DNA of 59,804 bases, taken from NCBI GenBank assembly GCA_964479405.1, contig CAYZMA010000001.1, positions 1 to 59,804 of the forward strand. Direction: 5' to 3'. Position numbers and translations under genes: made by a program. Positions 3,829 to 25,022 of this stretch are shown here, one piece after another. This DNA comes from an uncultured Candidatus Saccharibacteria bacterium. GTDB taxonomy: Bacteria > Patescibacteriota > UBA1384 > UBA12157 > JAENIV01. The stretch's first letter is position 1. Each line of letters begins with the position of its first letter. The notes under the pieces are model-generated. The model was not told the origin of the DNA, did not search any database, and was given only the letters and a program-made list of their open reading frames with translations.

Positions 3829-5703
3829 TTATTTTAGACAGTCAATGAGAGCAATGTTTAAATTTTTAATATTTAAACTGACAGAAAAATTATCATAAAT
3901 ATCACCGTGAATTTGAAAATCCAATTTTTTCTTGGCTATTTTTTGTAAAGCTTTATTTAGGGGAATAAAAATTTTACTTTGCAAATCATAGCGATTTTGA
4001 CCGTAAGAATGATTATTAAAAGATTTGTTTTTAATGGTAAGTTGAGGGTTTTCAATAATTTTCATAATAATTTCAATTGTTGCTTTAGCCGAGGGAATTT
4101 CTTTAGATGAAAGCACTTTTCCTTTAATATAGATTTTATGTTCCGAAATAAGAAAAGCTAGGTCGCTTTCTTTTATAATTTTCTTTAAATTTTCCGGTTC
4201 AATTAATTTAGTCTGGCAATTACCATTTTTGTAGAAACTAAGATGGCAACATTGAGGCGAAATAAATGACGAATACTTCCGTTCGGGCAAGAATTGATCT
4301 ACTTTTAGACCACTCTCGCCAAAACCGTCCGACCACGAAGCCCAATCCAAAAAAATATCTTTCTTTGCCTCTTCCGATAACTTTTCAGTTTCCTTAGTGA
4401 ATTTATCGGTCATAGTACCGTTTGGACCAATGATTAAAACATGACCACCTTTACCGATGCCCTCAATTTTGGCGCCGGCGACATTTAGTTCGTTTTCTTT
4501 AGCAATGACATCAACATATTGCCGACATATTTTATCTAAAAGCGGAGTAGAGTGTCCCAGGAAATGATTAAAATCTTGTTTCTGGTTAATGACATTAATA
4601 AATTGACGAAGTAATTCTTCACTTGAACCGACAGTGAACAGATTTTTCAAAGCAAGCAATAATTTAACGGTTGTCACATTCATAATATCCAGATAATGAT
4701 GATAAGAAAATTTTTGATTGTGTTCATTTTCCAAGTCAAGCAGATTTTTTAAACTCAAATCTTTATTTTTGATTTGCAAGACCAGTTCTTTATTAATTGT
4801 TTCTTCCAGTTTTTCAATATCGGTATTGAGCTTGGAGAGCGATTTGAAAATATGTTCCGTGTTAATTAAGTTGCCCGAATAAATACGGGCAATATCAATT
4901 GGCCAAGGTTGAGGTGTTCTAAAAGGGAAGATTTCTTCCAATGTACTGCCCCAAAAAGGAATTTCTTCAATTATTTGACAATTTTCTAGATTTTCGCGAG
5001 GAGAACGGATGGTCGGGTGATTGAGAAAATTATTGATATTTTTTGAAAAAAAGATAATCGGATAAGAACTATGCATTAAAGCGCCAAAACTGGTAGCGCC
5101 GGAAGAGTTGCCGTCACGGCAAATTGCTGTTAAGCGCCAACCGAGGCGGAAAACTTTTTTAAAATCCAGATAATCATCATTGTGGAGTAAATCGTCAACT
5201 GTAGCTGTTTCCCATTTTTCAATTTCATCGGTGGATATTTTTCCGGCTAATACTAGTAAAGTTGCGGCTAAGCAAGCCATTACCACACCGGTGCTACCCA
5301 AACCGCCGCCGCAATGAGACTCACTTAAAATATGAATACGCAAACCTTTAATTTTACCTGTCGGATCTAAAGTCGGCCAAAAATCTTTTAAAAAATTAAT
5401 CAAACGAATTTCTTTAGCCGGTTCGTAAGGAATTTTTTCAAAAGAATCGTTTGAAGGGTTGTAGCCCAATAAAGTATTATTAAAACAAAATTTTTTTTCA
5501 TCCAACACTTCTAAACCAACAAAATTTTTAGTCGGTAATTTTTGAAAAATAGTTAAACCGCCAAAAAATCTGGCGTATTCACCAGCCCAAAAGAAACTGT
5601 CGGCAGAGGAAATTACAATTTGACAACTTGAAAATAAGTCCTGATAAATTTCGGGAAATTTTTGTCTAAGGTTAGTTGAATTAACAATATCTCGTTGAAT
5701 CAT
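3829..5703 (-). CDS. Large GHMP-kinase-like protein with an extra C-terminal domain; function unknown
   Basis: GHMP motif II-like ILSESHCGGGLGSTGVVMACLAA and an N-terminal SFFWAGEYARFFGG segment. At 624 aa it is about twice the normal GHMP kinase length. Confidence 0.6.
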   Translation of the reverse strand: MIQRDIVNSTNLRQKFPEIYQDLFSSCQIVISSADSFFWAGEYARFFGGLTIFQKLPTKNFVGLEVLDEKKFCFNNTLLGYNPSNDSFEKIPYEPAKEIRLINFLKDFWPTLDPTGKIKGLRIHILSESHCGGGLGSTGVVMACLAATLLVLAGKISTDEIEKWETATVDDLLHNDDYLDFKKVFRLGWRLTAICRDGNSSGATSFGALMHSSYPIIFFSKNINNFLNHPTIRSPRENLENCQIIEEIPFWGSTLEEIFPFRTPQPWPIDIARIYSGNLINTEHIFKSLSKLNTDIEKLEETINKELVLQIKNKDLSLKNLLDLENEHNQKFSYHHYLDIMNVTTVKLLLALKNLFTVGSSEELLRQFINVINQKQDFNHFLGHSTPLLDKICRQYVDVIAKENELNVAGAKIEGIGKGGHVLIIGPNGTMTDKFTKETEKLSEEAKKDIFLDWASWSDGFGESGLKVDQFLPERKYSSFISPQCCHLSFYKNGNCQTKLIEPENLKKIIKESDLAFLISEHKIYIKGKVLSSKEIPSAKATIEIIMKIIENPQLTIKNKSFNNHSYGQNRYDLQSKIFIPLNKALQKIAKKKLDFQIHGDIYDNFSVSLNIKNLNIALIDCLK

Positions 5704-5776
5704 CTTGCACCTTTAAAGTATCACTTATTTTAATACATTTATATAAAAATAACAAGTCTTTGGTTGAATTGGTGAA

Positions 5777-6839
5777 TTCTAGACCCAGAGCAACACTTAA
5801 GATAAAATATCCAGTTAGATAGAAAGGTGTTGCCAATGTCAAATTTAACTTTGTATGATCGTCAAAGAATTGAATTTTATGTTAATTTCAAACGATTAAG
5901 TCTGCGCGATATTGCTAAGATAGTGAATCGAAATGTCTCGATTATTTCGCGAGAGATTAGACGGAACAAACCACAGTTAGGTTCATATAATGCTGAACTA
6001 GCCCAAAAGGCAGCTGAACGAAAAGGAAGATTTACTAACACTAAAAAGTTAGAAAAATGTGAACCGTTAAAGAATTATGTCCGCGAGAAATTAAAAGAAG
6101 ATTGGAGCCCAGAACAGATCGCTGGCAGACTAAAAACTAACGCGCCACCAGAGCTTAAAAGAAACAATGTTAGAACTGTTTGTATGGAAACCATCTACCA
6201 GCATATTTACAGTCAAAACGATGCCGAAGATCGCTTATATCACCACTTGAGAAGAAATAAACCCAAAAGACAAAAGCAGGGTCAAAGAAAAGAACAAAGA
6301 GTTTTTATACCTGATAGAACACCGATAATTCAAAGAGATGAACTGATTAACCAGAAAAAAAGATATGGCGATTTGGAAACTGACTTATTCTTTGGTAAGC
6401 GCTCTAAAGAAGCTGTTTCCGTTTCCTACGAGCGAAAATCAATGTATGCTATTTTACAAAAACTTGCTTCTAAAAAAGCTGATGTTGCCAAAGATGCGCT
6501 GGTAAAAACCATTGAAACTTTTCCGCCAGAATTTGTCAAATCATTTACTTATGATAACGGCTCGGAAAACTTTAAACACTACGAATTAAAGCGAGATTAC
6601 AAGTTGGAAACATTTTTCTGTGATACTTATTCTGCTTGGCAAAAAGGCGGTGTGGAAAATCTAAATGGGCTTATCCGCCAATATTTACCAAAGAAAATTG
6701 ATCTTCAAATTGATGAAGAGCGATTAAAATTCATCGAACAAAGACTCAATAATCGCCCCAGAAAATCACTTAATTATTTGACACCCCAAGAGGTTATGAG
6801 TAATGTATTAAATACAGAGTGTTGCTCTAAATTCTAGAA
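5777..6839 (+). mobile_element. IS30-family insertion sequence (about 1.06 kb) with imperfect terminal inverted repeats
   Basis: Left repeat TTCTAGACCCAGAGCAACACT (5777-5797) against right repeat AGTGTTGCTCTAAATTCTAGAA (6818-6839). They enclose a single IS30-type transposase gene. Confidence 0.8.
5836..6837 (+). CDS. IS30 family transposase
   Basis: N-terminal HTH (LSLRDIAKIVNRNVSIISREIRRN). DDE-type core: LETDL, YDNGSEN, AWQKGGVENLNGLIRQYLPK, RLNNRPRK. Confidence 0.85.
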   Translation: MSNLTLYDRQRIEFYVNFKRLSLRDIAKIVNRNVSIISREIRRNKPQLGSYNAELAQKAAERKGRFTNTKKLEKCEPLKNYVREKLKEDWSPEQIAGRLKTNAPPELKRNNVRTVCMETIYQHIYSQNDAEDRLYHHLRRNKPKRQKQGQRKEQRVFIPDRTPIIQRDELINQKKRYGDLETDLFFGKRSKEAVSVSYERKSMYAILQKLASKKADVAKDALVKTIETFPPEFVKSFTYDNGSENFKHYELKRDYKLETFFCDTYSAWQKGGVENLNGLIRQYLPKKIDLQIDEERLKFIEQRLNNRPRKSLNYLTPQEVMSNVLNTECCSKF

Positions 6840-6946
6840 CTTACTGTTTTTCCAAGTTTTTCTATTTTTTTCAAATACCAATTTGTTTAAATTAAAGATG
6901 TTATTATTGAACCTTGAAAATTGATATGTGCTGGGAGGGTACTTCA

Positions 6947-8461
6947 ATGAGGCTAAATTCAAAAAGTTGGCTAGGCGGTTTAACTTACGAGAAGCTTTGG
7001 GGAGTCAAAAAACCCGACACTCCAAAACCCGTAGAAACTTCTTCTGAACGAAAGCGTCGTTTAGGCGACGAACATCGTGCGCGTGAACGCGAGAGACGAG
7101 AGCGCGAAAGGGCAGAAGTAATTGCTCAAAGAACAAGTCGTATTCGTGAGTACACTGATTTGACAAGATCGCATGTTCAAGCAACCCTTGATAGATTTTT
7201 AAGTACTGCTCGTATTTCTCATCAAGAAAGCGATGAAAGCGATCAAGTGGCAACAAGTTTGCCGAGCGATGTCCAGATCAAGGAAAACATTAGCGACGAT
7301 TTTCGCATTAGGCGTCTGCCGGAAGCTTTGCAACCTTATGCTACAGACTGCGTCTTCAATATTGTTAAACAATCAATTGACAGATGCCAAAGCAAATTAC
7401 AACTCGCCCGCTTTCGTTTTAGCGCGGCTGTAAGTGATTTAGACAGTATTGTCAAATCATCAATCCATTTAAATAAAGAAACCAGACCAAGAATGTTCCG
7501 GGCTTTGGAAAAAATATCACAACCGCCTCCTGTAAGCGTATCACCAACCTTAGTTATTGACCAGAAAGTACAAGAAGCTTTTGCTTTACAAGCAGAAGTT
7601 AGTGTTGGTTGTGATCAAGCCAAAACCGAATTCAATGGTCTTAAATGCAGGCTGACTTGGTATTTTGTCTGCGGTGTCTTTGCTGCTTTTCTTGACTTGC
7701 CAATTGTTTATCTTTCGGTTTATCCGCGTTACGAAGGAACTTCTATGGATATTCCGGGTTTGATTCCGCTTTTGGCAATGACAATTACTATTATGGCTGT
7801 TTTCTTGGCTCACTTGGTCTTAAATAAGCATTGGTGGGCTATGCCACTCCTTGCTGTTGGTTCTTTATTCATTGGTGCTTTAAGAATGCCAGACATTAAG
7901 GAAGCATTTTCTGGAGATCTTGGTGTCGCTATTACTAACACCGCTTTGATTTCTGTTAATATCTTGGCAATTCCAATGATGGCAATTGTTGCAGGAATTT
8001 GTTTTCACAAGACTCAAGAAATTAACCAACGTTACAAAAAAGTCGGTAGGTGTTTAAAAATCTTGAGTCGTAAAAGAGATATTTCTGTGCAGACTCAAAA
8101 CCTAATCAACAGTGCTTTAGCCAATGTTCGCAATACTTTTGAACAGGCGAGTCGCCGTTATCGCGAAATGACAGAAACATATCGTAGCCAGTTGCAAATA
8201 ACAATCAATGAAATTTATGAAATGATTGATGTTCAGCTTGAGCAAAATAATGCTGAGATGGAAGCTATTTTCACCGGTATTAGAAGGCAAGTTCTTGACG
8301 AAATGGGACCAGTCATTGAATCTTGTGGTCGGGAATTGACTGTTCTGAGTGGGTTAAAAATTGAAAAAACAAGCCTGAAAATCAAACCCCAGGGGTTTGA
8401 TTTTGATGGTTTAGGAGGAGGTAATGGCGAAGAAAACAGAAGTCATGACTCGTTGGTTTAG
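6947..8461 (+). CDS. Hypothetical membrane protein: Arg/Glu-rich N-terminus, four predicted TM helices, coiled-coil C-terminus
   Basis: GGGAGGG SD site 8 nt before ATG 6947. RERERRERER tract and hydrophobic segments (WYFVCGVFAAFLDLPIVYL, LIPLLAMTITIMAVFLAHLVL and others). Higher G+C than its surroundings. Confidence 0.6.
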   Translation: MRLNSKSWLGGLTYEKLWGVKKPDTPKPVETSSERKRRLGDEHRARERERRERERAEVIAQRTSRIREYTDLTRSHVQATLDRFLSTARISHQESDESDQVATSLPSDVQIKENISDDFRIRRLPEALQPYATDCVFNIVKQSIDRCQSKLQLARFRFSAAVSDLDSIVKSSIHLNKETRPRMFRALEKISQPPPVSVSPTLVIDQKVQEAFALQAEVSVGCDQAKTEFNGLKCRLTWYFVCGVFAAFLDLPIVYLSVYPRYEGTSMDIPGLIPLLAMTITIMAVFLAHLVLNKHWWAMPLLAVGSLFIGALRMPDIKEAFSGDLGVAITNTALISVNILAIPMMAIVAGICFHKTQEINQRYKKVGRCLKILSRKRDISVQTQNLINSALANVRNTFEQASRRYREMTETYRSQLQITINEIYEMIDVQLEQNNAEMEAIFTGIRRQVLDEMGPVIESCGRELTVLSGLKIEKTSLKIKPQGFDFDGLGGGNGEENRSHDSLV

Positions 8462-8491
8462 GAGCAAAATAAAAACAAGGAGGATACGAAA

Positions 8492-9478
8492 ATGGCTGCT
8501 ACGGGATTAGTCTATGCGGAGTATGGCGCCAATCGTGGTGGTAGAGCCAATCTTGAGGCGATCAAGGAGAAACCAGGACTTGTGGAAAATTTATCCTTGG
8601 TCCATATTATTGATCCGGAGCCAGGGAGAGCCTTTGCCTTGGCTAAAGAGTACGAAAAGCTGGGGATTCAGGCTGAACCACATCAGTGCCTGGCTTTGGA
8701 TGCTCTTGATCTTACGGCAACGGTTCGGACAATGGCGATTGATGATTCGGCAACTTTGGGCAAAATTATGGGCAACGGTTCAAAGCAGGCGGTACTTCAA
8801 GGAGCTATTATGTTGTCGTCTGGTCAGTCGGGGTTTGGTGGTGGTGTTCTTGGTTTTGGCAGTAGCGTGCTGGAAGGGGACACTGAAATCAAGCGAGATG
8901 CTGCCGCTCTCTTTGGTCAAGTAGCTGACTTAGCGCCAGAGAGAACTACCAGCAGGATCATTAGATCCAAGCCAATAGAGGCTTCTCAGTTAGCCAACAC
9001 CCGTGATGCTGCCCATCATCACTTGGTAGAAACAATGGATCATTTTCTTGAGGGAGAAAAAGTGTATTCGGATGTTTTTGTGACAGAAACAATTAATCCT
9101 GATTCACCTTTTATCTACCCGGCTGTAATGATGCCATACGAGGGCGAAACCAGTCGCAAGCGTGCTTTGAAGGATTTAGCCATGGATTTGGCAAAGACTT
9201 CTGGCTACGACGAACTGGCGGTTGTTTTCTACCAGCCTGGAAAACCGTGGCTTTACACTACTTTCTTAATTAAGAGAGGACGGCAGTGGAATCTTCAACC
9301 GATTGATGTTGAAATACCAATGCCGACCGAAACCAAGGAAGTGTTCCGCGAAGCCGAGATTAGAAAGGCTAAGAAAATTGCTGATGCTGAAGCGCAAGCC
9401 GCCGCCATAGCCGCCGCCATAGCCGCGGCCGCTGCCGCGGCCGCCCAGCGAAACAATGACGCTTACGCAACAGACTAG
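8492..9478 (+). CDS. Hypothetical protein with a Gly-rich patch and a poly-Ala C-terminal tail
   Basis: AAGGAGG SD site. 328-aa ORF with no motif I recognise; contains GFGGGVLGFG and AAIAAAIAAAAAAAAQ. GC-rich. Confidence 0.55.
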   Translation: MAATGLVYAEYGANRGGRANLEAIKEKPGLVENLSLVHIIDPEPGRAFALAKEYEKLGIQAEPHQCLALDALDLTATVRTMAIDDSATLGKIMGNGSKQAVLQGAIMLSSGQSGFGGGVLGFGSSVLEGDTEIKRDAAALFGQVADLAPERTTSRIIRSKPIEASQLANTRDAAHHHLVETMDHFLEGEKVYSDVFVTETINPDSPFIYPAVMMPYEGETSRKRALKDLAMDLAKTSGYDELAVVFYQPGKPWLYTTFLIKRGRQWNLQPIDVEIPMPTETKEVFREAEIRKAKKIADAEAQAAAIAAAIAAAAAAAAQRNNDAYATD

Positions 9479-9496
9479 CTAGATTCCTTCCTTCGT

Positions 9497-9527
9497 CCCC
9501 GACGCAATCATGCGTCGGGGTTTTTTT
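9497..9527 (+). terminator. Intrinsic terminator
   Basis: Perfect 10-bp stem CCCCGACGCA / TGCGTCGGGG, 4-nt loop, then T7. Confidence 0.75.
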
Positions 9528-9615
9528 CTAAAATTTTCCATTTTCTTCAAGAGCTGTAAAGTTTAAAATAAATTAAGAAAGTTCAGGAATTCATTGCAGA
9601 AGGGAGCTGATTTGG

Positions 9616-10323
9616 ATGCACGGGAAAATATTGATGTGCTGTTTGACTGTTTTTCTTCTGACTGGTTGTAGCAAAAAAATTCCCGAAAATTGGTTGATTA
9701 TTGCTGACAACTCAAAAAGTCTGAAGTCACAGACGAACCTTATCAAAAAAGGAATTGACAAAGTCGGCGAGAGCTTTGTCAGAAGAGCTTGTACGGGGTC
9801 AAATTTAAAACTGGTTGGCTTTAGTCAGGTTGACTCAGCTTATAGACATCTTGTTCTAGCCAAACATAATTTTATTTTGACAGTGCCAGCCGATATCAGT
9901 CGTAAGGAGCAAGCAACCAAAATTGTCAATGAATTTGGTCAGGCTGTTAGCAATGTTCCTTTAGTTGACAATTCTTCTTTGCTGGAAGTTATTAGGATTC
10001 AATCGGAATTAATGCCCAATGATTGCCAATGGCGTTTAATTATTATTTCCGATTTTATTCAAAGCACTTCAGCTTTGCTCTTTACGCCGAAATATCTTGT
10101 AAGTAGAGGAAACAGAGAAATTGTTAAGGACATGCTGGCAATTTCTCCCAAACCGGCTAATCCGCCAATAAGTGTTACGCTTTATTGGTATCCGGGTCTT
10201 TGGGACAAAAATCAGGCTATTGATCCAAAAACCCATGCTCGTGTCCGCCGAATTTTTAAGCAGTTCTTCCAAAGTTGGGCTGGCAAAGATTGTCCAATTG
10301 AAATTGAGCCTTTGCAGGAATAA
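9616..10323 (+). CDS. Putative lipoprotein with a vWA-like (MIDAS) domain
   Basis: Lipobox LLTGC near the N-terminus. DNSKS (DxSxS) motif and a later LIIISDF strand. Confidence 0.5.
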   Translation: MHGKILMCCLTVFLLTGCSKKIPENWLIIADNSKSLKSQTNLIKKGIDKVGESFVRRACTGSNLKLVGFSQVDSAYRHLVLAKHNFILTVPADISRKEQATKIVNEFGQAVSNVPLVDNSSLLEVIRIQSELMPNDCQWRLIIISDFIQSTSALLFTPKYLVSRGNREIVKDMLAISPKPANPPISVTLYWYPGLWDKNQAIDPKTHARVRRIFKQFFQSWAGKDCPIEIEPLQE

Positions 10324-10349
10324 AGAAACTAATTTACTACTATTTTTAT

Positions 10350-10380
10350 GAGGTCGGAAATCTTTTTCCGACCTCTTTTT
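10350..10380 (+). terminator. Intrinsic terminator
   Basis: GAGGTCGGAAA / TTTCCGACCTC stem with a 4-nt loop, followed by a T-run. Confidence 0.7.
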
Positions 10381-10413
10381 ATTTTAACCAACAAAAGATA
10401 TACTTAAATTAAG

Positions 10414-11601
10414 ATGTCTAAATTATTGCAAATTTACTTGCGTTTTTGGGTGAAATTTTATTTAAAACGCACGAAACCTAAAATTGTTGCTATCACCGGT
10501 TCAATTAGCAAGACCTCAACCAAAGAGGCGATTTTTGAAGTTTTGAAAATTAAGTTTGGTAAGGATTTAAGAAAATCAGAAGGCAATTTAAATAATGAAA
10601 CAGGCGTGCCTTTGGCAATTTTCGGGTTTAAAAAATCGCCGACAAAATCTTGGCAGTGGTTACCAATTATTATTGGTGTCAAATGGAGAGCCTTATTTGG
10701 CCAAAAATTTAAAGTCTTGGTCTTAGAAATGGCCGCTGACAAACCGGGGGATATTAAATATTTAACTGATTTTATTAAACCCGATATTTCCTGCATCACC
10801 AGCATTGCGCCGGCGCATTTATCTGCTTTTGGGAGTATTGAAAAAATTGTCCAAGAAAAAACCGATCTTATCAGGGCTTTACCTTGTGGCGGTTGGACTG
10901 TTTTGAATTATGACGACGAAAATTTAAGAAAATTATCTTCTACGGACCCGCAGACATTAACTTATGCTATAGAAGAAAAAGCCGATATTACGGCTAAAAA
11001 TATTACCACCGAAATTATCAATTTTAAACCTAAAACACTTTTCCAAGTTTCAAGCGAAAATTTAAAGTTTAGAGCAACGGTGCCGACTTTGGGTAGAGTT
11101 TGGAATGTTTATTCCGCTTTGGCGGCGGTGGCGGTCGGGAGTATTTTTGAAATGTCGTCAGCCGATATTATTAAAGGTCTGGAAAATATCAGATCAGAGG
11201 CACACAGAATGTCAGTTTTAAAAGGTAAAAACAATACTTTACTCATTGACGATTCTTACAACGCAAATCCGCTTTCAATGAAAGTGGCGTTGGATGTTTT
11301 AAAATTTTTACCTCAGCCGTCACAAGGCGCAAGAAAAATTGCTGTTTTAGGCGACATGTTAGAAATTGGGCAAATTTCAGCCGAAGCCCACCGGCTTATT
11401 GGTCAATCTGCAAAAGAAATTGCCGATCTTGTAATTTCAGTAGGTAAAGAGGCGCGAAAATATAATGGTCAAGTTCATTTTGAAACGGCACAGGAAGCAG
11501 GCGACTTCCTTTTGGCTAACTTACAGAAAAATGATATAATTTTAGTAAAGGCTTCCCGAGCGATTGGCTTGGATAAAGTTGTTGAAAGATTGAAAGAATA
11601 A
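10414..11601 (+). CDS. murF: UDP-N-acetylmuramoyl-tripeptide--D-alanyl-D-alanine ligase
   Basis: Mur ligase P-loop ITGSISKTSTKE and DDSYNANPLSM motif. Lies immediately upstream of mraY. Confidence 0.85.
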   Translation: MSKLLQIYLRFWVKFYLKRTKPKIVAITGSISKTSTKEAIFEVLKIKFGKDLRKSEGNLNNETGVPLAIFGFKKSPTKSWQWLPIIIGVKWRALFGQKFKVLVLEMAADKPGDIKYLTDFIKPDISCITSIAPAHLSAFGSIEKIVQEKTDLIRALPCGGWTVLNYDDENLRKLSSTDPQTLTYAIEEKADITAKNITTEIINFKPKTLFQVSSENLKFRATVPTLGRVWNVYSALAAVAVGSIFEMSSADIIKGLENIRSEAHRMSVLKGKNNTLLIDDSYNANPLSMKVALDVLKFLPQPSQGARKIAVLGDMLEIGQISAEAHRLIGQSAKEIADLVISVGKEARKYNGQVHFETAQEAGDFLLANLQKNDIILVKASRAIGLDKVVERLKE

Positions 11602-12626
11602 TGGAACAAATTCAAATTTATTTACCCAATTTGGTCAAGATTTTTTGGCTAACTGGCATTTCTTTTATTATTGCCATTATTTGGACGCCAATTTTTACCG
11701 ATTTTTTGTATCGCAATCGTTTTGGCAAAAGAATTCGCAAAACCGGTTATGACGAACAAAAGGCGCCTATTTTTTATGCCTTGCATAAACATAAAGCCGA
11801 TACGCCGACAATGGGAGGACTGGTTGTTTGGGTCACAACAGCCGTAATTACCGTTCTTTTTAATTTTTCGCGATCTGGCACTTGGTTGCCACTCTTTGCT
11901 TTAGTTGCCTCTGGTATTATTGGGGCGATTGATGACATTTACAATATCCGAGGCATTGGACCGCATGGCGGGGGACTTCGTTTTAGGTTTAAACTTTTAA
12001 TTTATTTGGCGATCGCCACCGTCGGCGCTTGGTGGTTTTATTTTAAACTTGGCTGGGATATTTTTCACATTCCGGGAGTGGGTGATTTGTCTTTAGGTTT
12101 TTGGTATGTGCCCTTATTTATTTTGGTTATTGTTGCCGTTGCTTTTGCTGTCAATGAAACCGATGGACTCGATGGTTTAGCTGGTGGTACTTTGGCAATT
12201 TCCTACGGCGCATATTGTATTATTGCTTTAGTTGAAGGAAAATCGGCACTGGCGGCATTTTGTGGCACAATTATGGGCGCGCTCTTAGCTTTTTTGTGGT
12301 TTAATATTTATCCGGCAAGATTTATTATGGGCGATACTGGTTCTATGGCATTGGGGGCGACTTTAGGAGTGATTGCCTTTTTGACTAATACCGTGGCAGT
12401 TTTGCCAATTATCGGTTTTATTTTTTTACTTGAAGCTTTGTCAGTTATGATTCAAATTGCTTCAAAGAAATTATTTAAACGGAAGGTTTTTCTTTCGGCT
12501 CCTATTCATCATCACCTTGAAGCGTTGGGTTGGCCCGAGCCGAAAGTAGTGATGCGTTTTTGGGTCATTTCGGCGGTAATGGCTATTATTGGGGTGATGA
12601 TTGCCTTAGTTGGTCGGGGAATCTAA
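11601..12626 (+). CDS. mraY: Phospho-N-acetylmuramoyl-pentapeptide transferase
   Basis: NETDGLDGLAGG, MGDTGSMALG and APIHHHLE motifs; polytopic membrane protein. Confidence 0.95.
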   Translation: MEQIQIYLPNLVKIFWLTGISFIIAIIWTPIFTDFLYRNRFGKRIRKTGYDEQKAPIFYALHKHKADTPTMGGLVVWVTTAVITVLFNFSRSGTWLPLFALVASGIIGAIDDIYNIRGIGPHGGGLRFRFKLLIYLAIATVGAWWFYFKLGWDIFHIPGVGDLSLGFWYVPLFILVIVAVAFAVNETDGLDGLAGGTLAISYGAYCIIALVEGKSALAAFCGTIMGALLAFLWFNIYPARFIMGDTGSMALGATLGVIAFLTNTVAVLPIIGFIFLLEALSVMIQIASKKLFKRKVFLSAPIHHHLEALGWPEPKVVMRFWVISAVMAIIGVMIALVGRGI

Positions 12627-12646
12627 AATTTCAGGAGGGATATAAA

Positions 12647-15600
12647 GTGAATAAACGAAAAATAATTACAAGCGCGCTGGCGATAATTTTTGTTCTTGCT
12701 ATCAGTTTTTTTGTTTTTCGGGGGAGCATTTTTAAAGCCGACACCGGGCCGTATGTTCTTTCAGGTAGAATATTTGCGGAGGATTCAAAAGCACCCCTTT
12801 CTGATGTCAATATTATTCTTACTTCCACTGATACAAATATTCCACCGATAACAGCAAAATCCAATCTCGATGGTTCGTATTCCATTTCGGCGTCGGCAAA
12901 TACTTTTACTAGTATTAGCTTTCTCAAAGACGGTTATTGGGACTTAACTGGCAGTGTTATTAACTCTGGTAATCTTTCTAATATGAATTTAAGTCTGGCA
13001 ATGAAATCCGGTTTTGGTCAGGAAGATATTGAAATAGCGACAGTCAAGAAAGGTCGTCCTTGGGAGACAACTAGGTTCGGTCTATCAATTCAGCCAACCG
13101 ACAATTCTCCTAGCGGTCTCAAAACGATCGTGCCGGACGGAAGCACTTATCAAGAGCAATCTTTAGGAACATCATCATTTGAAGGTTACGATCTAGTAAA
13201 ACACGGCTTTGCTCCCATGCAAAGCACCGTCCTATTCGCTGGCGAGACTCTTAAAGTTGGTTCCTCTAAAGATCTAACCATTCTTTTTAGAGGCAAAGCA
13301 AAAACTGATAACTTCTCCTTCTTAAATAAAAAGATTGACGAAGGAAACTGGCAAAACTCTCCGCCGACCTATTTTGCCAACCCATACCTTAAAGAAATCC
13401 CGCTTTCCAGTATTGCCATCAGATACCAAGACAAAGACTATTCCGTAAAAGATGCGGTCAGCGCCAATATCATCAATTCCACTATCTTTATCAGTAATTA
13501 TCCTAATCAAAAACAACTGGATTTTAACAATCCCGACCTACCAATTCCGACTGGGGCATACTTTGCTTTTTGGAGTAAGAAAGATGGGGTAAGTATCGCA
13601 ATTTCTAGCAATACTAATAATAATACTGTTGAACTGCCAACCGATATTTCTTATGACGAATTTGTTCAAATTGCTCAACACGACCAGATTTTGCCGGCTG
13701 ACCAACAAGCTGATCTTGAAAATAAAGAAAATTATATTATTGCTAATACGTATGCCCAAATGGCAAAAAATAATATATCCATTACGGCCGATATGGATAT
13801 TTTGTTGACCAAAAATGAAAAGGTGATCAACCCCAATCAGCTCAACTCTCATTATATGGATTTGCTTCAACAACAATCAAATAAGGGTATAAATATCGCT
13901 CATGCAGACACAAACACAAAAGCCAGTATTGACTTTTTAATTAACCGAGCTAGTTTTGGAGCAGACATTGCAACTTACAATCAAGTTAACGATTTTAAAA
14001 ATACCCAGCTTAATAATATCAAAGCTATTATGGGTGAGCCGATTTTTTCAAGAACAGTTAAAGTCTACAATCTTGATAAGGTTTTAGTATGTAATAGTTT
14101 GCCAAGTTATGCATTCGGAGACTTATCTAAAGGTGCCATTTTTACGACTAAAAGTGAATGTTTGGAATATATGAATAGTTTTAAAGATAATGGTGCTTCA
14201 ATCTCAAATTTAAATGTCATTATAATTGATTTTAACGGTCAATCTATTTCTAAGTCCAGAGAAGAAACTCTGGAGCACGAGATGAGCCATAGCTGGAGAT
14301 CTGTATTCAAAATGGTTTATTCACATAGTTTTGAAGAAGGGCTGGCAGAAAGTCTGCCTTTTGTTATGAAACAGGTTTATAATCCAAACTATTCAGCTGT
14401 AGGAGATAAGGAAACCCCGGTTAATAATTTTGATTATTGGGCTAATAATGTTCCCGAGGCTTATAGAACTTATACTGGAGACAAATATCTTGGTTATTAT
14501 TATGATGGTTATGATTTCTTGAGTGAGTATGGTATTCAAGACGACTTTTTTTGGACACGCAAAATGCATGCCAGCGCGATCTTAAAATTTTTCATTCAAG
14601 ATTATGAACCAGGTTCCCCAACTTTTTATCAAAAATTTGACGATAATTTATTTTTAGAGGTGGTTAAAAACATGGGTTATCCAGTTAATCTTCAAATGTC
14701 TGATCAATATCAAATTAATATGTATAATTTAGTGTGGAAAAATGGAAAGCTTATGAGTGATATGGACCTTTATAACATTTTTTCTAACTCTGGTAATAAC
14801 GAAGATTTAAAGCAAGTTGAAAATATTGATCTAGCACAATGGTTTAAAACAAAATCAGTTTTTCATTTATCGGGTATTTACAATACTCCGGCTGTTGTAG
14901 CTAGCGCAGTTATTCAATATCCAGAAGCTCAAACTATCTGTACTAATAACGATCTTAAGTGTCTTGCTTATCAAAACAAAAGTATGATTTTTTATACCAA
15001 TTCATTTCAATCAAATGGTGGTCGCGGAGTAAGTTATTTAACTGGTACATTTAATAATAAGATTTATTATTTTACTCCTGAAGGTAATGCGTTAAGAATT
15101 GTTGACAGTACCGATACAACTGATGAACAAGGAGCTCTTGATATTACTCCAACAATCAGCTTGGCTAAAACTGTTAATAGTCAATATACTGGTTCATGGC
15201 ATTTTGTCTCTGTCGCTAAAGAAGACAATGGACATGGGTCTCGGGGGATTTATGCCGGTAATCTGTTCACTAAGGCGGGCAGTGGAGTAGGGAGTGGCAT
15301 TTATGGCACTGCAGATCTTCCTGATGGTACTGTGATTACCCTTAACCATGTAAAAGATGACGGTTCTCTTGAACAAGTTGCTCAAACAACTATTTCCAAT
15401 TATGCTTATGAATTTCCGCAAGTTAATGACAATTATGGTCAGTATGTTCTTAACACAACTGGCTACACAAAAAATATAGATAAATGGAAAGGTCATTATG
15501 AACAAGACATTAAAACCGATACCACCAATCCAATTATTACCTCCAAAGGCTCATCTGGTTCAAAGATTAATTATTCTTTAAGCGAACCGGCTTCTGCTTT

Positions 15601-17473
15601 TATAGAATACGGTCTGGAAAAAGATAAATATGACAATATCTCTTTTGGTAAAGCCATAGATGCCAGTAAATTTGAAGGCGATGAAATAAAAGACGGCGAT
15701 AGGGAATTAACTATTGAAAATTTAGACAAAACCAAAGAATATCACTATCGCATTTGGGCGATAGATAAATCCGGCAACATTTCGCATACCGACGACCAAG
15801 TTTTAAATCCAATTGACATTTCTAACATTCAAATCAAAGACATTACTGATACTTCAGCCACTATCACTTGGACCGCCGATCCGGCAACTCAAGCTGTCAT
15901 TGAATATGGCACAACAACTAATTATGGACAAACCAAAGCCGATACTGAAGTAAAAACCAATCATTCCGTCAATCTGACCGGTCTTACAAAAGGGACAACT
16001 TATCATTTTAGAATTAAAGCTTTTATAACTGACGCTAACAAATCAAACTACAGTTCCGACCAAACATTCCAAGCGATTACTTTTGCAATTAGCAATATTA
16101 CGACCGGTTACGGCACTGGTAATTTACCTAAAATTACTTGGAATACAAGTGTCTCCGCCTTTGGCTTGGTTGAATATGGCGAAACTGCCAGCTATGGTTC
16201 TACTTTAGCTTCTGGTAATCCTACTTTCAAAGAAACCACAAAAATCGCTCTCTTTCCCAATAATTTGCCAGTTGGCAAAACTTATCATTTCCGGATAAAA
16301 GCGTATGTAAGTGAGACGGCGCCGATTTACTCCAGCGACCAAACTATAACCTATAATCCTTGTTCGGAAATAAGAAATGCTTGGGTAGGCGAGACCGGGG
16401 CTCAAATCTATATGCCGTATTCGGACAAAACTTTAACCATCAGTGGTCAAACCTATCCTTATCAAACCGGTGGCTATATCGTTTTGTCTGGACTTACTCC
16501 AGCTACTCAATATAATTACGAAGTTTCCGGCTGTGGTGTTGGCAGAGGTTTTCAAACCGATATAATTCTTAAATATATCCAGCAACAAATGGCGCTTGGT
16601 CAAGCGACGGTTCAATGGGACACTAATTTTCCGGTTGACCAAAGTTTGCGTCTTGTTAAAGGCAGTTCGTCTATGGTGGTTGGGGTGACTAATGTCGGTA
16701 ATCATCATACGGCTGCTAATTTCACCGCCCCGACTGGTGTTTATGCTATGTATGTCAAAACAAATAATCTTGAAAAAAGCATTGGCACTATTAATTTTTC
16801 AGGTCTTTATGTTACGAGCAAGTATTTGGATAGTGGTTCATATCTTCTTCATTTTACCTATAACAAATCAGCTAATCTGACCGTAACAAGATGGTATTAT
16901 CGTAGTGGTTGGTACTCTAGTGTCTTGGAGGTTTCTAGTGGTTCTAGTTTCCAGTTTGATACCTTTGTCTGCAGTACTAGAACTGGTGAAGGTGGTGCTT
17001 ATTGCGCCTTTGATGCTAAAAGCCAAGATAACCCAACGGAAACAGCATACTTTAGTGCCAGTGGTACTTCTCCAGGAAGTGATAGTGCTAATGCTTACAA
17101 TATCCCCGCGGTTGCTCTTGAACTGCCGACCACTCTAGAGACTGATGCTTCTTCTTCCGGCTTAGTTCAAACTAATCTTCCCGCCGAAGTTTCTGACAGT
17201 AAGATGGTTCAATCAATCACCTTGCAATATGGCACTCAAAAAGGCATCTATGCCAATTCTCAAGAAATGAAATCACAAGATCGTTTCTATGCTTCTCAAA
17301 TTCCTAATTTAAAGAGTCGAACTTACTATTACCGTTTGGCCATTACTGATCCTGCCGGTCAAATAACCTATACTCCTGAACAAACTTTTCAATCTGGCAA
17401 TAAATATCTTCGTTTCTTTAACGATTTCTTTGGCAATGCTTGGAGTTGGGTTAAGGGAAAGTTCAGGAAATAA
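12647..17473 (+). CDS. Giant (about 1608 aa) membrane-anchored surface protein with CarboxypepD_reg-like N-domain, HExxH motif and FN3-like repeats
   Basis: AGGAGG (12633-12638) then GTG 12647. N-terminal anchor IITSALAIIFVLAISFFVF and HEMSH at 14276-14290. Repeated ..ITW....A.IEYG.T..YG......H...L.GL...T.YHFRIKA modules at about 15.5-16.4 kb. Confidence 0.75.
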   Translation: MNKRKIITSALAIIFVLAISFFVFRGSIFKADTGPYVLSGRIFAEDSKAPLSDVNIILTSTDTNIPPITAKSNLDGSYSISASANTFTSISFLKDGYWDLTGSVINSGNLSNMNLSLAMKSGFGQEDIEIATVKKGRPWETTRFGLSIQPTDNSPSGLKTIVPDGSTYQEQSLGTSSFEGYDLVKHGFAPMQSTVLFAGETLKVGSSKDLTILFRGKAKTDNFSFLNKKIDEGNWQNSPPTYFANPYLKEIPLSSIAIRYQDKDYSVKDAVSANIINSTIFISNYPNQKQLDFNNPDLPIPTGAYFAFWSKKDGVSIAISSNTNNNTVELPTDISYDEFVQIAQHDQILPADQQADLENKENYIIANTYAQMAKNNISITADMDILLTKNEKVINPNQLNSHYMDLLQQQSNKGINIAHADTNTKASIDFLINRASFGADIATYNQVNDFKNTQLNNIKAIMGEPIFSRTVKVYNLDKVLVCNSLPSYAFGDLSKGAIFTTKSECLEYMNSFKDNGASISNLNVIIIDFNGQSISKSREETLEHEMSHSWRSVFKMVYSHSFEEGLAESLPFVMKQVYNPNYSAVGDKETPVNNFDYWANNVPEAYRTYTGDKYLGYYYDGYDFLSEYGIQDDFFWTRKMHASAILKFFIQDYEPGSPTFYQKFDDNLFLEVVKNMGYPVNLQMSDQYQINMYNLVWKNGKLMSDMDLYNIFSNSGNNEDLKQVENIDLAQWFKTKSVFHLSGIYNTPAVVASAVIQYPEAQTICTNNDLKCLAYQNKSMIFYTNSFQSNGGRGVSYLTGTFNNKIYYFTPEGNALRIVDSTDTTDEQGALDITPTISLAKTVNSQYTGSWHFVSVAKEDNGHGSRGIYAGNLFTKAGSGVGSGIYGTADLPDGTVITLNHVKDDGSLEQVAQTTISNYAYEFPQVNDNYGQYVLNTTGYTKNIDKWKGHYEQDIKTDTTNPIITSKGSSGSKINYSLSEPASAFIEYGLEKDKYDNISFGKAIDASKFEGDEIKDGDRELTIENLDKTKEYHYRIWAIDKSGNISHTDDQVLNPIDISNIQIKDITDTSATITWTADPATQAVIEYGTTTNYGQTKADTEVKTNHSVNLTGLTKGTTYHFRIKAFITDANKSNYSSDQTFQAITFAISNITTGYGTGNLPKITWNTSVSAFGLVEYGETASYGSTLASGNPTFKETTKIALFPNNLPVGKTYHFRIKAYVSETAPIYSSDQTITYNPCSEIRNAWVGETGAQIYMPYSDKTLTISGQTYPYQTGGYIVLSGLTPATQYNYEVSGCGVGRGFQTDIILKYIQQQMALGQATVQWDTNFPVDQSLRLVKGSSSMVVGVTNVGNHHTAANFTAPTGVYAMYVKTNNLEKSIGTINFSGLYVTSKYLDSGSYLLHFTYNKSANLTVTRWYYRSGWYSSVLEVSSGSSFQFDTFVCSTRTGEGGAYCAFDAKSQDNPTETAYFSASGTSPGSDSANAYNIPAVALELPTTLETDASSSGLVQTNLPAEVSDSKMVQSITLQYGTQKGIYANSQEMKSQDRFYASQIPNLKSRTYYYRLAITDPAGQITYTPEQTFQSGNKYLRFFNDFFGNAWSWVKGKFRK

Positions 17474-17509: not shown

Positions 17510-18262
17510 ATGGAAGAGCATTTCTTTAAATTTGCTATTTTTTCAGCTTTTTCAGAATTAACTTGCGGTATCTCAAATCGTAACTTCGGTGATATGAGAT
17601 TCGGTTACCAAAAACAAGCTGATATTGTTAAAAATAGGGCACAGTTTTTAGGGCAATTAAATATAAATATCTCTGATCTTGTTGTGCCGGTTTTGGCTCA
17701 TGGCGCTCAAATTGCAATTGTTGGTCAGCATGACAAAGGCAAAGGCGCTACTGATCATAAAACAGCCATAACGGCAACCGATGGACTAATCACTTGTGAA
17801 AGTGGCGTTTATTTAATGGTTACTGTTGCCGACTGTTTGCCCGTTTTAATTTATGATCCAATTCTAAAAATTACTGGTGTCATCCATGCTGGTTGGCGGG
17901 GGATTATTGCTCAAATTGTGCCTAAGGCAATTAATAAATTTAAAACTCTAGGAAGTGTTCCACAAAATTTAGTTGTTGGTGTTGGTCCCGGTATTTGTCA
18001 AAAACATTTTATTGTTAAAAAAGATGTTCTTGATTTATTTTTAAATCGATATCCTTCATCAACTTTTGTTAGAAATAATGATGGTTATGTTGATTTAAAA
18101 AAAGCTGTTTTAACAGATTTAAAAAATATGGGAGTGTTGTCATCAAATATTGAAATATCAAATATCTGTACTGTTTGTGAAAATGGTATTTATGGCAGTT
18201 ATCGTAAAGAAAATGATGCTGTCAAAGCTTCGGCGGCGGTTATTGGAATAAAAAATAAATGA
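17510..18262 (+). CDS. pgeF: Peptidoglycan editing factor PgeF / YfiH (DUF152 laccase-domain) family protein
   Basis: VTVADCLPVLIYDP and GVIHAGWRG motifs. Confidence 0.8.
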   Translation: MEEHFFKFAIFSAFSELTCGISNRNFGDMRFGYQKQADIVKNRAQFLGQLNINISDLVVPVLAHGAQIAIVGQHDKGKGATDHKTAITATDGLITCESGVYLMVTVADCLPVLIYDPILKITGVIHAGWRGIIAQIVPKAINKFKTLGSVPQNLVVGVGPGICQKHFIVKKDVLDLFLNRYPSSTFVRNNDGYVDLKKAVLTDLKNMGVLSSNIEISNICTVCENGIYGSYRKENDAVKASAAVIGIKNK

Positions 18263-23627: not shown

Positions 23628-25022
23628 ATGAATACACAAAAAATACATTTTATTGGTATTAAAGGTGTGGGAATGACCGCTTTGGCGATTTTAGCTTTAG
23701 AAAAAGGCTATGAAGTTACCGGTTCAGATGTTGAAGATACGTTTGTTACAGATATTGCTTTAGAAAAAACTGGAATTGTTGTTACCTCATTTGACGCAAA
23801 AAATCTTCAAAATAAACCGGATATAGTGGTGCTTTCAGCCGCCTACAATAAAGATAATATTGAAGTCAAAGAAGCTCGAAAAAAAAGATTAAACATTAAA
23901 GCTTACTCGGAAATATTAGCCCTTTTTTCTTCAGAGTCCCAAGTTATTGCTGTTTCGGGTATCCACGGCAAAACCACTACTACGGCATTGATAAGTTTTC
24001 TTTTAACTAAAGCTAATTTGAATCCAAGCTATGTTATTGGGTCAGGGGAGATTGCCGATTTACCAGCCTCTGGTCATTTGGGAAGTGGTGATTATTTTGT
24101 TTTAGAAGCAGATGAGTATAGAAAAAGTCCTGACGATAATAATTCTAAATTTTTTGATTTAAATCCTCAAATTGAAATAATTACCAGTATTGAAATGGAT
24201 CATCCGGATATGTTTTTGACTGACGAAAAAGTCTACGAAGCTTTTTACAAATTCGCTTGTCGCATTCCGCGTAAAGGTTTTATTGTTTTATGTCTAGACT
24301 ATCCAAAAGCTAAAAAGCTCCTTCGTTCTTTAGCCGATAGAAACTTTGAAACTTATGGTTTTAGTGAAGATGTTGCTTGGCAAATTATTGATTATTTGGA
24401 GTCAGTCGATTCAACAAGTTTTAGTCTAATAAATGAAGGAAAAAATATTGGACCTTTTGTAATTAAAATCCCGGGCGAAGGAAATGTCTTAAATGCCACT
24501 GCCGCCGTTATTGTTGCTTTGAAATTAGGCATTCAAGAAAAATCAATTATAAAATATCTAGCAGAATTTCAGGGTGTAAAAAGACGTTTTGAAAAGATTG
24601 GTCAATTTAATGACATTACTGTGATTGATGATTATGCTCATCACCCGCATTCAGTTGCTTTAACGCTTGAAGCGGTTAAAAAAAGATTTCCCGATGCAAA
24701 AATTTGGTGTATTTTTCAACCCCATACTTATTCAAGGACAAAAGAATTATTAAGCAGTTTTGCGACCGCTTTTAACTGCGCTGACAAAGTAATTATTACC
24801 GATATCTACGCTTCAGCTCGTGAAAAAGAAGCCACCATTACGGCCGAAGATTTAACTCAAGCAATACATATAAATCAAAAACAAGTTAAGTATGTTAGTT
24901 CTTGGGACAAAATTACACAAGAATTAATTGATAATGTCGGTGGAAAAACAGTTATTATTACCATGGGGGCGGGCGATATTTATAAACTTGGACAAAATAT
25001 TTTAAAAGAACTTAAAAAATGA
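23628..25022 (+). CDS. murC: UDP-N-acetylmuramate--L-alanine ligase
   Basis: IHFIGIKGVGMTALA, GIHGKTTTTALI and DDYAHHP motifs. Confidence 0.9.
   Translation: MNTQKIHFIGIKGVGMTALAILALEKGYEVTGSDVEDTFVTDIALEKTGIVVTSFDAKNLQNKPDIVVLSAAYNKDNIEVKEARKKRLNIKAYSEILALFSSESQVIAVSGIHGKTTTTALISFLLTKANLNPSYVIGSGEIADLPASGHLGSGDYFVLEADEYRKSPDDNNSKFFDLNPQIEIITSIEMDHPDMFLTDEKVYEAFYKFACRIPRKGFIVLCLDYPKAKKLLRSLADRNFETYGFSEDVAWQIIDYLESVDSTSFSLINEGKNIGPFVIKIPGEGNVLNATAAVIVALKLGIQEKSIIKYLAEFQGVKRRFEKIGQFNDITVIDDYAHHPHSVALTLEAVKKRFPDAKIWCIFQPHTYSRTKELLSSFATAFNCADKVIITDIYASAREKEATITAEDLTQAIHINQKQVKYVSSWDKITQELIDNVGGKTVIITMGAGDIYKLGQNILKELKK

Follow-up and report, generated by a model that had tools for sequence, protein, structure and literature searches.

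The window analyzed here is a 59,804-nucleotide stretch of DNA (contig CAYZMA010000001.1) from an uncultured Candidatus Saccharibacteria bacterium. Its division and cell wall (dcw) gene cluster contains a 3.4-kb cassette of three genes, ORF1, ORF2, and ORF3, whose predicted products are a membrane protein with four transmembrane (TM) helices, a cytoplasmic protein ending in Thr-Asp, and an exported lipoprotein with a von Willebrand factor A (vWA) domain. Very probably, the cassette is a genuine, horizontally acquired three-component membrane module. The role of this module is suggested more tentatively. The reading that we favor, while giving it less than even weight, is a self-contained mobile three-gene module that forms one membrane-spanning complex and serves in surface or entry exclusion or in defense against incoming DNA or phage.

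The association of the three genes is seen beyond the window. A word-indexed search with ORF2 returned only the protein itself and one homologue, and an exhaustive HMMER search recovered 61 proteins at E<=1e-3 among 1.84 billion representatives, nine of them at E<=1e-30. Nearly all of these matches are about 280-340 aa long and align end-to-end; the 20 that were looked up are all singletons or two-member clusters from metagenome or metagenome-assembled genome (MAG) assemblies. Homologues at 41-59% identity occur on three further contigs, L001, L005, and L006, the last two of which come from one sample. Distant loci are represented by the contigs of seven ORF2-family members with 23-38% identity to ORF2 (L009, L010, L011/L012, L013, L014, L015, and L016). 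In all seven, ORF1-like and ORF3-like genes lie immediately upstream of ORF2, giving the order ORF1-ORF3-ORF2, and the order in the window clade is ORF1-ORF2-ORF3.

Hidden Markov models (HMMs) of the families match adjacent open reading frames in L001, L003/4, L005+L006, L009, L010, L011/12, L013, L014, L015, and L016. The last three loci were left out of ORF1 and ORF3 model building, and their E-values range from 2e-5 to 5e-40 for ORF1 and from 8e-53 to 2e-58 for ORF3. With the window clade counted, the three families are adjacent in 11 of 11 independent loci, in genomes of 36-65% GC. The initial annotation of this DNA, made from its letters alone, had suggested a survey of gene neighborhoods, with scattered homologues as the outcome that would speak against a common module; the homologues proved to be neighbors throughout. 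The distant loci have overlapping ORF1 and ORF3 genes (46-64 nt, in different frames), except that in L009 the two form a single open reading frame.

The module is very rare, with about 60 sequence clusters among the 1.84 billion representatives. A scan of 185,579 species representatives from GTDB yielded only one genome, the Patescibacteria MAG GCA_023485405.1 (hereafter M1429). The tblastn searches against 50,697 phage and 72,556 plasmid records detected no relative of the cassette, and neither did two scans of IMG/VR and two scans of JGI metagenomes. A phage or plasmid origin was rejected, as nothing was found in the phage, plasmid, and IMG/VR scans.

The locus itself is reproducible in independent assemblies. 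Over its first 19.5 kb, the window shares 99.93% identity with LBSM01000001.1 from Berkelbacteria bacterium GW2011_GWA1_36_9, a tiny groundwater member of the Candidate Phyla Radiation (CPR)/Patescibacteria, the differences being one substitution and one 12-bp indel. In M1429, where the cassette has the locus tags M1429_01150-01160, and in one Logan contig, the genes ftsI, orf624 (on the minus strand), ORF1, ORF2, ORF3, murF, and mraY follow in identical order, with no IS30 between them. The cassette proteins of the window and the sister locus share 77-79% identity. The ratio of nonsynonymous to synonymous divergence (dN/dS) between the window and M1429 is 0.114 for ORF1, 0.116 for ORF2, and 0.111 for ORF3. 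The synonymous divergence (dS) of the cassette is 1.14-1.26, compared with 1.20 for murF and 0.87 for ftsI and mraY. Because the gene order is shared and dS is close to that of murF, the cassette is older than the split of the window and M1429 lineages; its genes are real and have evolved under purifying selection. The initial annotation had also considered that the genes might be an assembly chimera. This is ruled out by the matching locus in independent assemblies and by the cassette dS, which is comparable to that of the flanking murF.

The origin of the cassette can be traced from its codon composition. The initial annotation described all three genes as GC-rich, and this description fits only one of them. 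Relative to 42 other genes of the window (GC 35.8 +/- 4.4%; G+C at third codon positions, GC3, 28.9 +/- 5.5%), ORF2 is an outlier with 49.6% GC (z 3.2) and a GC3 of 0.459 (z 3.1), and the highest 1-kb GC value of the window falls within it. ORF1 (40.8% GC, z 1.1) and ORF3 (39.3% GC, z 0.8) are within the range of ftsI and mraY. A gradient emerges when lineages are compared. In L005 the neighbors of the cassette (plsY and genes for M23 peptidase, HAD, HD, and GIY-YIG proteins) have 28-40% GC and a GC3 of 0.22-0.36, and the GC3 of 0.54 for ORF1 and 0.64 for ORF2 is a sharp break from these flanks. M1429 is intermediate, with 0.38 for ORF1, 0.52 for ORF2, and 0.42 for ORF3 next to flanks of about 0.30. 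Amelioration has gone furthest in the window, with 0.33, 0.46, and 0.36, respectively, against a mean of 0.29. The L001 contig, which carries the ORF1 C-terminus, ORF2, and ORF3, has a 50% GC background. The GC3 gradient thus indicates that the cassette was acquired horizontally from a donor of about 50-55% GC before the window/M1429 split and has been ameliorating slowly since.

Horizontal acquisition had been proposed before, partly from the proximity of an insertion sequence (IS), and the GC3 gradient provides better grounds. A complete IS30-family element does lie directly upstream of ORF1 as described: it occupies about 5772-6844 (about 1.07 kb), encodes a transposase at 5827-6837 (NF033563, E 4e-73), and is bounded by imperfect inverted repeats of 26-27 nt at about 5772-5797 (GTGAATTCTAGACCCAGAGCAACACT) and 6818-6844. 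It is present in a single copy, inserted in the spacer between orf624 and ORF1. The corresponding intergenic region of M1429 is about 166 bp long, uninterrupted, and aligns to the window on both sides of the IS. Since M1429 carries the cassette in this position and lacks IS30 there, the element is a later, unrelated insertion, and its role as the vehicle of the cassette or as the boundary of a composite element was rejected. The insertion may separate ORF1 from its original promoter.

Among the three proteins, ORF3 is the one with a recognizable fold. An AlphaFold2 (AF2) model built from four homologues has a mean predicted local distance difference test score (pLDDT) of 75 and a predicted TM-score (pTM) of 0.78. 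A Foldseek search of this model against the PDB gave 41 matches at E<=1e-3, all of them vWA domains with probability of about 1.0 and TM-scores of 0.33-0.54, including integrin I-domains, CMG2, Ku, NorD, and ITIH1; in BFVD, the named matches at E<=1e-3 are mostly VWFA proteins. Neither ORF3 nor the family consensus matched the VWA models of Pfam and NCBIfam even at E<=10, and the ORF3 sequence found nothing significant in the PHROG, PADLOC, and PDB-sequence libraries. Because the TM-scores are modest, ORF3 is best regarded as a divergent member of the vWA superfamily, assigned to it by fold and motif only.

The metal ion-dependent adhesion site (MIDAS) of ORF3 can be assigned in part. The DxSxS motif is present in 10 of 10 homologues across the loci, and the eight homologues that were aligned all have Asp146, which ends the "IISD" strand; these are the MIDAS elements assigned in ORF3, with no position assigned to Thr. 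A signal peptide with a lipobox-type Cys is found in nine of 10 homologues, and L015 has a signal-like segment without the Cys. The lipoboxes of the family are LTGC (window), LMGC, VTGC, ISSC, LQGC, IISC, AIAC, LTGC, and ILSC, and Cys18 is invariant in the window clade. ORF3 is therefore predicted to sit, as an exported lipoprotein with a MIDAS-type site, on the outer face of the cytoplasmic membrane. Both the lipobox and the DNSKS and IIISDF motifs had been read from the sequence initially, and the assignment as a vWA lipoprotein stands, with vWA matches dominating both structural libraries.

These features of ORF3 bring up adhesion as an alternative role. The MIDAS vWA lipoprotein would then be a surface adhesin, comparable to CglB, pilus-tip adhesins, or integrin I-domains, binding a partner cell or substratum for an episymbiotic CPR cell or for a donor cell carrying the mobile element, and ORF1 and ORF2 would anchor it and regulate its exposure. 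CglB, from the Glt gliding machinery of Myxococcus, is documented as an adhesin of this kind: a vWA lipoprotein linked to a machine that spans the envelope (Islam et al., 2023, PMC9946355). Like ORF3, with its intact DxSxS, CglB is a lipoprotein consisting essentially of one MIDAS vWA domain and works with a dedicated envelope-spanning complex. Unlike ORF3, it resides in the outer membrane of a diderm and depends for its recruitment on beta-barrel Glt proteins and a TolQR-like motor; the cassette encodes no such partners, and no sequence relationship was detected. Long retention under purifying selection in reduced CPR genomes also fits a function tied to lifestyle. However, the mature form of ORF3 consists of a vWA domain alone (about 215 aa), held directly at the membrane without a stalk to carry it through a wall or S-layer; the triad also occurs on integrative elements of very different GC-rich bacteria; and adhesion alone leaves the conserved cytoplasmic partner with its invariant polar residues unexplained. 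We consider an adhesion module rather unlikely.

ORF1 would provide the membrane-spanning part of the complex in the favored reading. Its predicted layout is a cytoplasmic N-terminal domain of about 235 aa with the charged RARERERRERER stretch (RERERRERER), four TM helices in close succession, and a cytoplasmic C-terminal domain of about 145 aa that is helical and coiled-coil-like. Three of the helices pass the Kyte-Doolittle (KD) threshold of >=1.6, and the fourth is just below it. This agrees with the charged N-terminus, four central TM helices, and long heptad-like C-terminus that had been described initially. Clusters of Lys and Arg precede TM1, occupy the TM2-TM3 turn, and follow TM4, and by the positive-inside rule the topology is likely N-in/C-in. 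With this topology only two short loops, YPRYEGTSMDIPG and LRMPDIKEAFSGD, would face outward; both are nearly invariant within the window clade. In the alignment of 10 ORF1-like proteins, the acidic residue of TM1 (D250) is D or E in 10 of 10, the Arg at the end of TM3 (R313) is present in 10 of 10, and Ala-His at the end of TM2 in eight of 10. The ORF1 start codon matches those of database protein P0007 (504 aa) and the M1429 orthologue.

No family of Pfam, NCBIfam, PHROG, or PADLOC matches ORF1 above threshold, and the weak matches are of a coiled-coil type. Identification of ORF1 with ZorA, MotA, or AriA was rejected, as the matches are only at the coiled-coil level. In MotA-like ZorA of the Zorya system a TM bundle is also followed by a long helical cytoplasmic tail, and the PADLOC ZorA2 model matches ORF1 weakly (E 1.4e-3) over the tail. 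That match is limited to the coiled coil and is at chance level for this type of sequence, partners ZorB, ZorC, and ZorD are absent, and ORF1 differs in topology by its four tightly spaced TM helices and the 235-aa N-terminal domain.

The motifs of ORF2 are GANRGG (aa 12-17), DPEPGRA (41-47), AIDD (81-85), a Gly-rich loop (113-125), S154, and R171. In an alignment of 36 sequences these take the forms GANRGG, DPxPGRA, and AIDD, and the invariant residues are G12, G16, D41, R46, D84, S154, R171, P276, and the terminal Thr-Asp. The C-terminal -TD, preceded by a hydrophobic-x-hydrophobic pattern, is found in 57 of the 61 matches of the ORF2 search; one more ends in -SD and one in -GD, and the remaining two comprise a truncated fragment and a spurious match to a eukaryote-like repeat protein. 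Upstream of the tail is a linker variable in length and composition, which in the window contains a poly-Ala tract. Within this linker, a 12-bp tandem duplication (GCCGCCATAGCC x2, encoding AAIA) is the sole indel between the window and GCA_000991925.1 (328 vs 324 aa) and represents a repeat-length polymorphism.

The fold of ORF2 gave few leads. The family has no match in Pfam, PDB, NCBIfam, PADLOC, or PHROG, and a Pfam search with its members and consensus produced nothing meaningful. The best matches of the family profile to PDB sequences (E 0.1-0.6) are local, covering residues 15-94, and hit beta-alpha-beta segments of Rossmann proteins of the SDR and Gfo types; one member has a sub-threshold match to PF01408 (E 0.0055). 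A beta-alpha-beta pattern in the N-terminus is a lead only. Assignment to Gfo/Idh/MocA, SDR, or other Rossmann enzymes was rejected after the hhalign comparison with a bona fide GFO protein (probability 0.2%). Assignment to GHMP kinases or P-loop NTPases was rejected as well: Pfam, PDB, and hhalign comparisons gave nothing significant, and none of the 61 matches contains a Walker A motif (G-x4-GK[ST]). ORF2 had been called an orphan with a Gly-rich patch and a poly-Ala tail; both segments are present, and the protein is still an orphan.

Another candidate relationship of ORF2 is with FtsZ. Under this explanation, the cassette would be a divergent FtsZl1-type system in which ORF2 is a cryptic FtsZ-like GTPase, with GANRGG as T1 and GGGVLGFG as T4, and the coiled coil has moved onto ORF1. 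The operons in question, FtsZl1-vWA, are predicted to act in membrane remodeling (Makarova and Koonin, 2010, PMC2875224); they usually hold a MIDAS-intact vWA gene and TM proteins. Like the triad, they combine such a vWA protein, often secreted or membrane-bound, with uncharacterized TM proteins and a coiled-coil component, and their distribution is sporadic. The motifs of ORF2 loosely resemble T1 and T4, and its succession of core, variable linker, and conserved C-terminal peptide recalls the layout of FtsZ. However, the Gly-rich loop is not invariant in the ORF2 family, and none of the 36 members matches the Tubulin model of Pfam. An FtsZ- or tubulin-like nature of ORF2 was rejected at the sequence level by hhalign comparison of the 36-sequence profile with an FtsZ profile (whose E. 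coli sequence was confirmed as FtsZ): the probability is 0.2-0.3% in local and global modes, and T1 and T4 do not co-align. The triad thus differs from FtsZl1-vWA operons in lacking an FtsZ-like GTPase (0.2% by hhalign), and ORF2, with its length of about 300 aa and its TD tail, belongs to an unrelated family; the frequent partners of those operons (protein kinase, divergent P-loop GTPase, and OmpA-family protein) were not recognized in the cassette either. This explanation is scarcely credible.

The genes that surround the triad elsewhere suggest how it may spread. Downstream of the triad, L009, L010, and L015, and partly L016, encode a small single-TM protein, a large P-loop ATPase, and a tyrosine integrase, the integrase being absent from L016. 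The small protein (about 58 aa) is encoded directly after the ORF2 homologue at 11012-11188 in L009, 4670-4846 in L010, and 9947-10072 in L016; it is homologous among these three loci, and the motif ...LDRTIFS.PW is common to L009 and L010. It may be a fourth component in the branch of integrative elements, with no counterpart in the window clade. The ATPases of L009 and L010 are 47% identical; that of L016 has 23-24% identity to both, and that of L015 24%, to L010 only. The L015 and L016 copies carry a DUF87 (HerA-type) domain, and the L015 copy matches the PADLOC mad8 and HerA models. Excisionase-like HTH_17 genes are found in L009 and L015, and genes for tRNA-Glu and tRNA-Gly abut the integrases in L009 and L010. 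By their gene content, the four triad loci with a HerA/FtsK-like ATPase, three of them with an integrase and two adjacent to tRNA genes, are integrative elements. Other notable neighbors are a 1485-aa NACHT/STAND gene in L014 and a DNA methyltransferase and Mu-like transposition genes in L015.

Another alternative is that the triad belongs to a minimal DNA-transfer apparatus of an integrative element, conjugation-like or uptake-like, with the CPR copies being remnants or co-opted. ORF1 and the small TM protein would form the conduit, ORF3 the outer contact, and the HerA/FtsK-like ATPase the motor, and ORF2 would have an accessory or substrate-recognition function. Such an apparatus would resemble the TraB/Spd systems of actinomycete elements and the Ced system of archaea. 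L009 and L015 have the complete co-linear backbone of triad, small TM protein, ATPase, HTH_17, and integrase, and L010 and L016 have part of it, despite ATPase identities of only 23-47%; the DUF87 domain of L015 and its matches to HerA and mad8 also fit a motor. However, in the window, L001, L003, L005, and L011-L014, tblastn detected homologues of neither the ATPase nor the small TM protein nor the integrase. Because backbone homologues were undetected there, the triad is considered autonomous in these loci; it is intact in them and, where measurable, under purifying selection. No relaxase, Rep, or type IV secretion system component was recognized. A transfer apparatus of this kind is unlikely.

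The position of the cassette in the window raises a further possibility. The dcw cluster consists of mraZ, rsmH, ftsL, ftsI, orf624 (minus strand), the IS30 element, ORF1, ORF2, ORF3, murF, and mraY, followed by a gene for a 1647-aa surface protein, pgeF, murD, ftsW, murG, a PMT-family glycosyltransferase gene, murC, murB, and ftsQ. The interruption between ftsI and murF, noted initially, is present and includes orf624 (minus strand) and IS30 besides the three-gene cassette. The accompanying suggestion that the cassette took the place of murE is not supported: murE is absent from the entire 59.8-kb window, where murC, murD, murF, mraY, murG, and murB were identified, and displacement of murE by the cassette is not visible, the arrangement with orf624 being ancestral to the window and M1429 genomes. 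Given this position, the triad might be an accessory complex acting with the divisome or the peptidoglycan machinery in these CPR bacteria. Consistent with this, the genes are co-oriented between ftsI and murF, the position is kept in two genomes at dS of about 1, and an M23 peptidase gene and plsY are nearby in L005. Against it, the cassette has its own terminators and a foreign composition, the context is wholly different in every other lineage so that the triad is already seen outside dcw clusters, and ORF2 shows no FtsZ relationship. A division or cell-wall accessory role is very unlikely.

Returning to exclusion or defense, we can outline how the module might work. ORF1, ORF2, and ORF3 would assemble into one complex across the cytoplasmic membrane. 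The vWA metal site of ORF3 would bind an acidic (carboxylate) ligand outside the cell, either on an external structure (a surface, pilus, or phage) or on the acidic outer loops of ORF1, which are conserved. ORF1 would relay the state across the membrane in an integrin-like manner, outside-in or inside-out, and its acidic TM1 residue may couple the relay to ions. ORF2 would dock on the cytoplasmic domains of ORF1 through its C-terminal TD tail and act as a cytoplasmic effector or regulator. Acidic C-terminal tips of other proteins dock on partners in a similar way. A direct contact between the ORF2 tail and the MIDAS is chemically attractive and conflicts with the topology, as ORF3 is exported and ORF2 has no signal peptide. 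A bolder version, possible although we hold it with some doubt, is that the triad is a categorically new autonomous trans-envelope system in which the vWA lipoprotein and the four-TM protein, with its acidic residue in the membrane, link surface events to a cytoplasmic component, a family with a new fold that is recognized via the TD docking tail; mobile elements would employ and disseminate it for exclusion, defense, or DNA transfer, and CPR bacteria would have domesticated it.

The placing of exclusion or defense first follows from an analogy with pairs of membrane-protein and lipoprotein exclusion genes beside a coupling ATPase. In the F plasmid, the exclusion genes traS and traT adjoin the gene of the coupling ATPase TraD. 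The triad loci would be similar in that genes for an inner-membrane protein and a surface lipoprotein lie, on a mobile element, next to that of an ATPase of the FtsK/HerA superfamily. The analogy is functional only: TraT is not a vWA protein, ORF2 has no counterpart, and there is no sequence or fold relationship. With low confidence, and on data that do not discriminate among them, we rank exclusion or defense ahead of adhesion, adhesion ahead of DNA transfer, and DNA transfer ahead of an envelope role linked to the dcw cluster.

Several observations weigh against the favored reading. First, all 11 loci were found through ORF2, and the adjacency count covers ORF2-bearing loci. Second, the ORF1-ORF3 fusion in L009 could be a one-base assembly error or frameshift or a genuine fusion. 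Third, mobile-element genes are missing from the vicinity of seven of the 11 loci, several of which lie on short contigs. Fourth, the mutual interaction of ORF1, ORF2, and ORF3 is only what we infer. Fifth, the AF2 model of ORF2, built from two sequences, has a pLDDT of 44, and the Foldseek result was uninformative. Sixth, none of the cassette genes has a significant match among the PADLOC and PHROG models. Finally, the dcw-cluster position in the window and M1429 also fits a housekeeping role in the cell envelope, and the co-linear backbone with an ATPase fits DNA transfer as well as exclusion.

Modules centered on vWA proteins are already known, and the triad shares only the vWA domain with FtsZl1-vWA, vWA-MoxR, and CglB/Glt systems, lacking an FtsZ-like protein and MoxR. 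The vWA-MoxR ternary conflict systems of the VMAP, iSTAND, and FtsH types (Kaur et al., 2020, PMC7159879) are similar to it in having three components around a vWA protein thought to capture a peptide via the metal site and in their conflict or mobile contexts. They are defined, however, by a MoxR AAA+ ATPase, whereas ORF1 and ORF2 have no AAA match and the ORF2 family has no Walker A; in addition, the vWA protein of the triad is an exported lipoprotein, and ORF1 and ORF2 are unrelated to VMAP and iSTAND.

The trio could not be mapped to any named system initially, and the searches of Pfam, NCBIfam, PHROG, and PADLOC led to the same result. In PADLOC-DB v2, ORF1 has coiled-coil-level matches only (E>=1e-3), and ORF2, ORF3, and the L015 homologues have none; PDB sequence searches with all three families yielded nothing significant. 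The remote-homology and structure searches recommended at that stage revealed the vWA fold of ORF3 and no known family for ORF1 and ORF2. Pfam (2025), NCBIfam (2026), PHROGs, and PADLOC contain no named family for ORF1 or ORF2, and sequence comparison detects no solved relative of either. No published description of the function of the triad was found.

The expression signals of the cassette and other features of the window are listed in Table 1. All three genes are on the plus strand with the boundaries given initially. Each is preceded, 8-10 nt upstream, by the purine-rich Shine-Dalgarno site that had been described, and the two terminators named at that stage are the two best terminator-like sites in 5600-10600. 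In this region, the scan found nine sites against 4.7 +/- 2.4 in shuffled sequences. An Rfam scan of 5600-10500 gave no match.

Table 1. Positions of cassette features, selected genes, and other sites in the window.
Feature	Position	Strand	Motif	Description
orf624	3829-5703	-		624-aa hypothetical protein
Shine-Dalgarno of ORF1	6932-6936	+	GGAGG	10 nt before ATG 6947; read from sequence
ORF1	6947-8461	+		504-aa membrane protein
ORF1 TM block	7652-8020	+		aa 236-358; predicted by hydropathy scan
Shine-Dalgarno of ORF2	8477-8482	+	AGGAGG	read from sequence
ORF2	8492-9478	+		328-aa predicted cytoplasmic protein, signal-less, unnamed family
Tandem duplication in ORF2 linker	9385-9408			12 bp, two copies
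Codons for C-terminal Thr-Asp of ORF2	9470-9475	+		T327-D328, family-invariant tail
Intrinsic terminator-like hairpin after ORF2	9497-9527	+	TTTTTTT	10-bp stem (8 GC pairs) at 9497-9520, then the T-run
Shine-Dalgarno-like site of ORF3	9601-9607	+	AAGGGAG	read from sequence
ORF3	9616-10323	+	LTGC, DNSKS	235-aa predicted exported lipoprotein; lipobox Cys C18, DNSKS at aa 31-35, D146
Intrinsic terminator-like hairpin after ORF3	10350-10380	+		module end; 11-bp stem at 10350-10375, then T-run
murF	10414-11601			395 aa
Surface protein gene	12530-17473			1647 aa
murD	18259-19656
murC	23628-25022
RhuM-family gene	26817-27869			PF13310
purD	39373-40668			GARS domains

Several neighboring genes are of interest in their own right. 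The product of orf624, wedged between ftsI and the cassette, is 89% identical to its M1429 counterpart (dN/dS 0.05), and the gene has a native-like GC content of 33.7%. Its sole match is a sub-threshold phosphate loop of GHMP kinases (HCGGGLGSTG; PF00288, E 0.004), and it is absent from the triad in other genomes. The murF product matches TIGR01143 only from model position of about 124, with a score of 274.9 below the 288.6 cutoff; its N-terminal domain is apparently missing, and the M1429 orthologue is of equal length. The 1647-aa protein encoded between mraY and pgeF/murD contains fn3 and purple-acid-phosphatase-N domains. At this position M1429 has a 207-aa open reading frame and a radical-SAM gene on the opposite strand, which makes it a second variable spot of the dcw cluster. 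Directly after ftsQ is a gene for a "virulence protein" of the RhuM family (PF13310, E 7e-110), a family typical of genomic islands. After that in ORF2, the highest GC peak of the window (about 46%, at 39.2-39.9 kb) falls on purD and is probably a compositional bias of a conserved gene rather than foreign DNA.

If ORF3 were a plain adhesin with helper proteins, the significance of the triad would be modest. If the favored reading is true, the cassette would represent an undescribed membrane-spanning module around a vWA metal-site domain, the other two families of which are nameless and unannotated, and a small, defined candidate for a new exclusion, defense, or DNA-transfer function. The ORF2 family would contribute an unusual hallmark, the invariant C-terminal -TD. 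The locus would also illustrate clearly how a candidate-phyla bacterium captured foreign genes horizontally into its dcw cluster. The triad is a rare yet strictly conserved unit, found in genomes of 36-65% GC and in tRNA-integrating elements and fixed under purifying selection in minimal CPR genomes.

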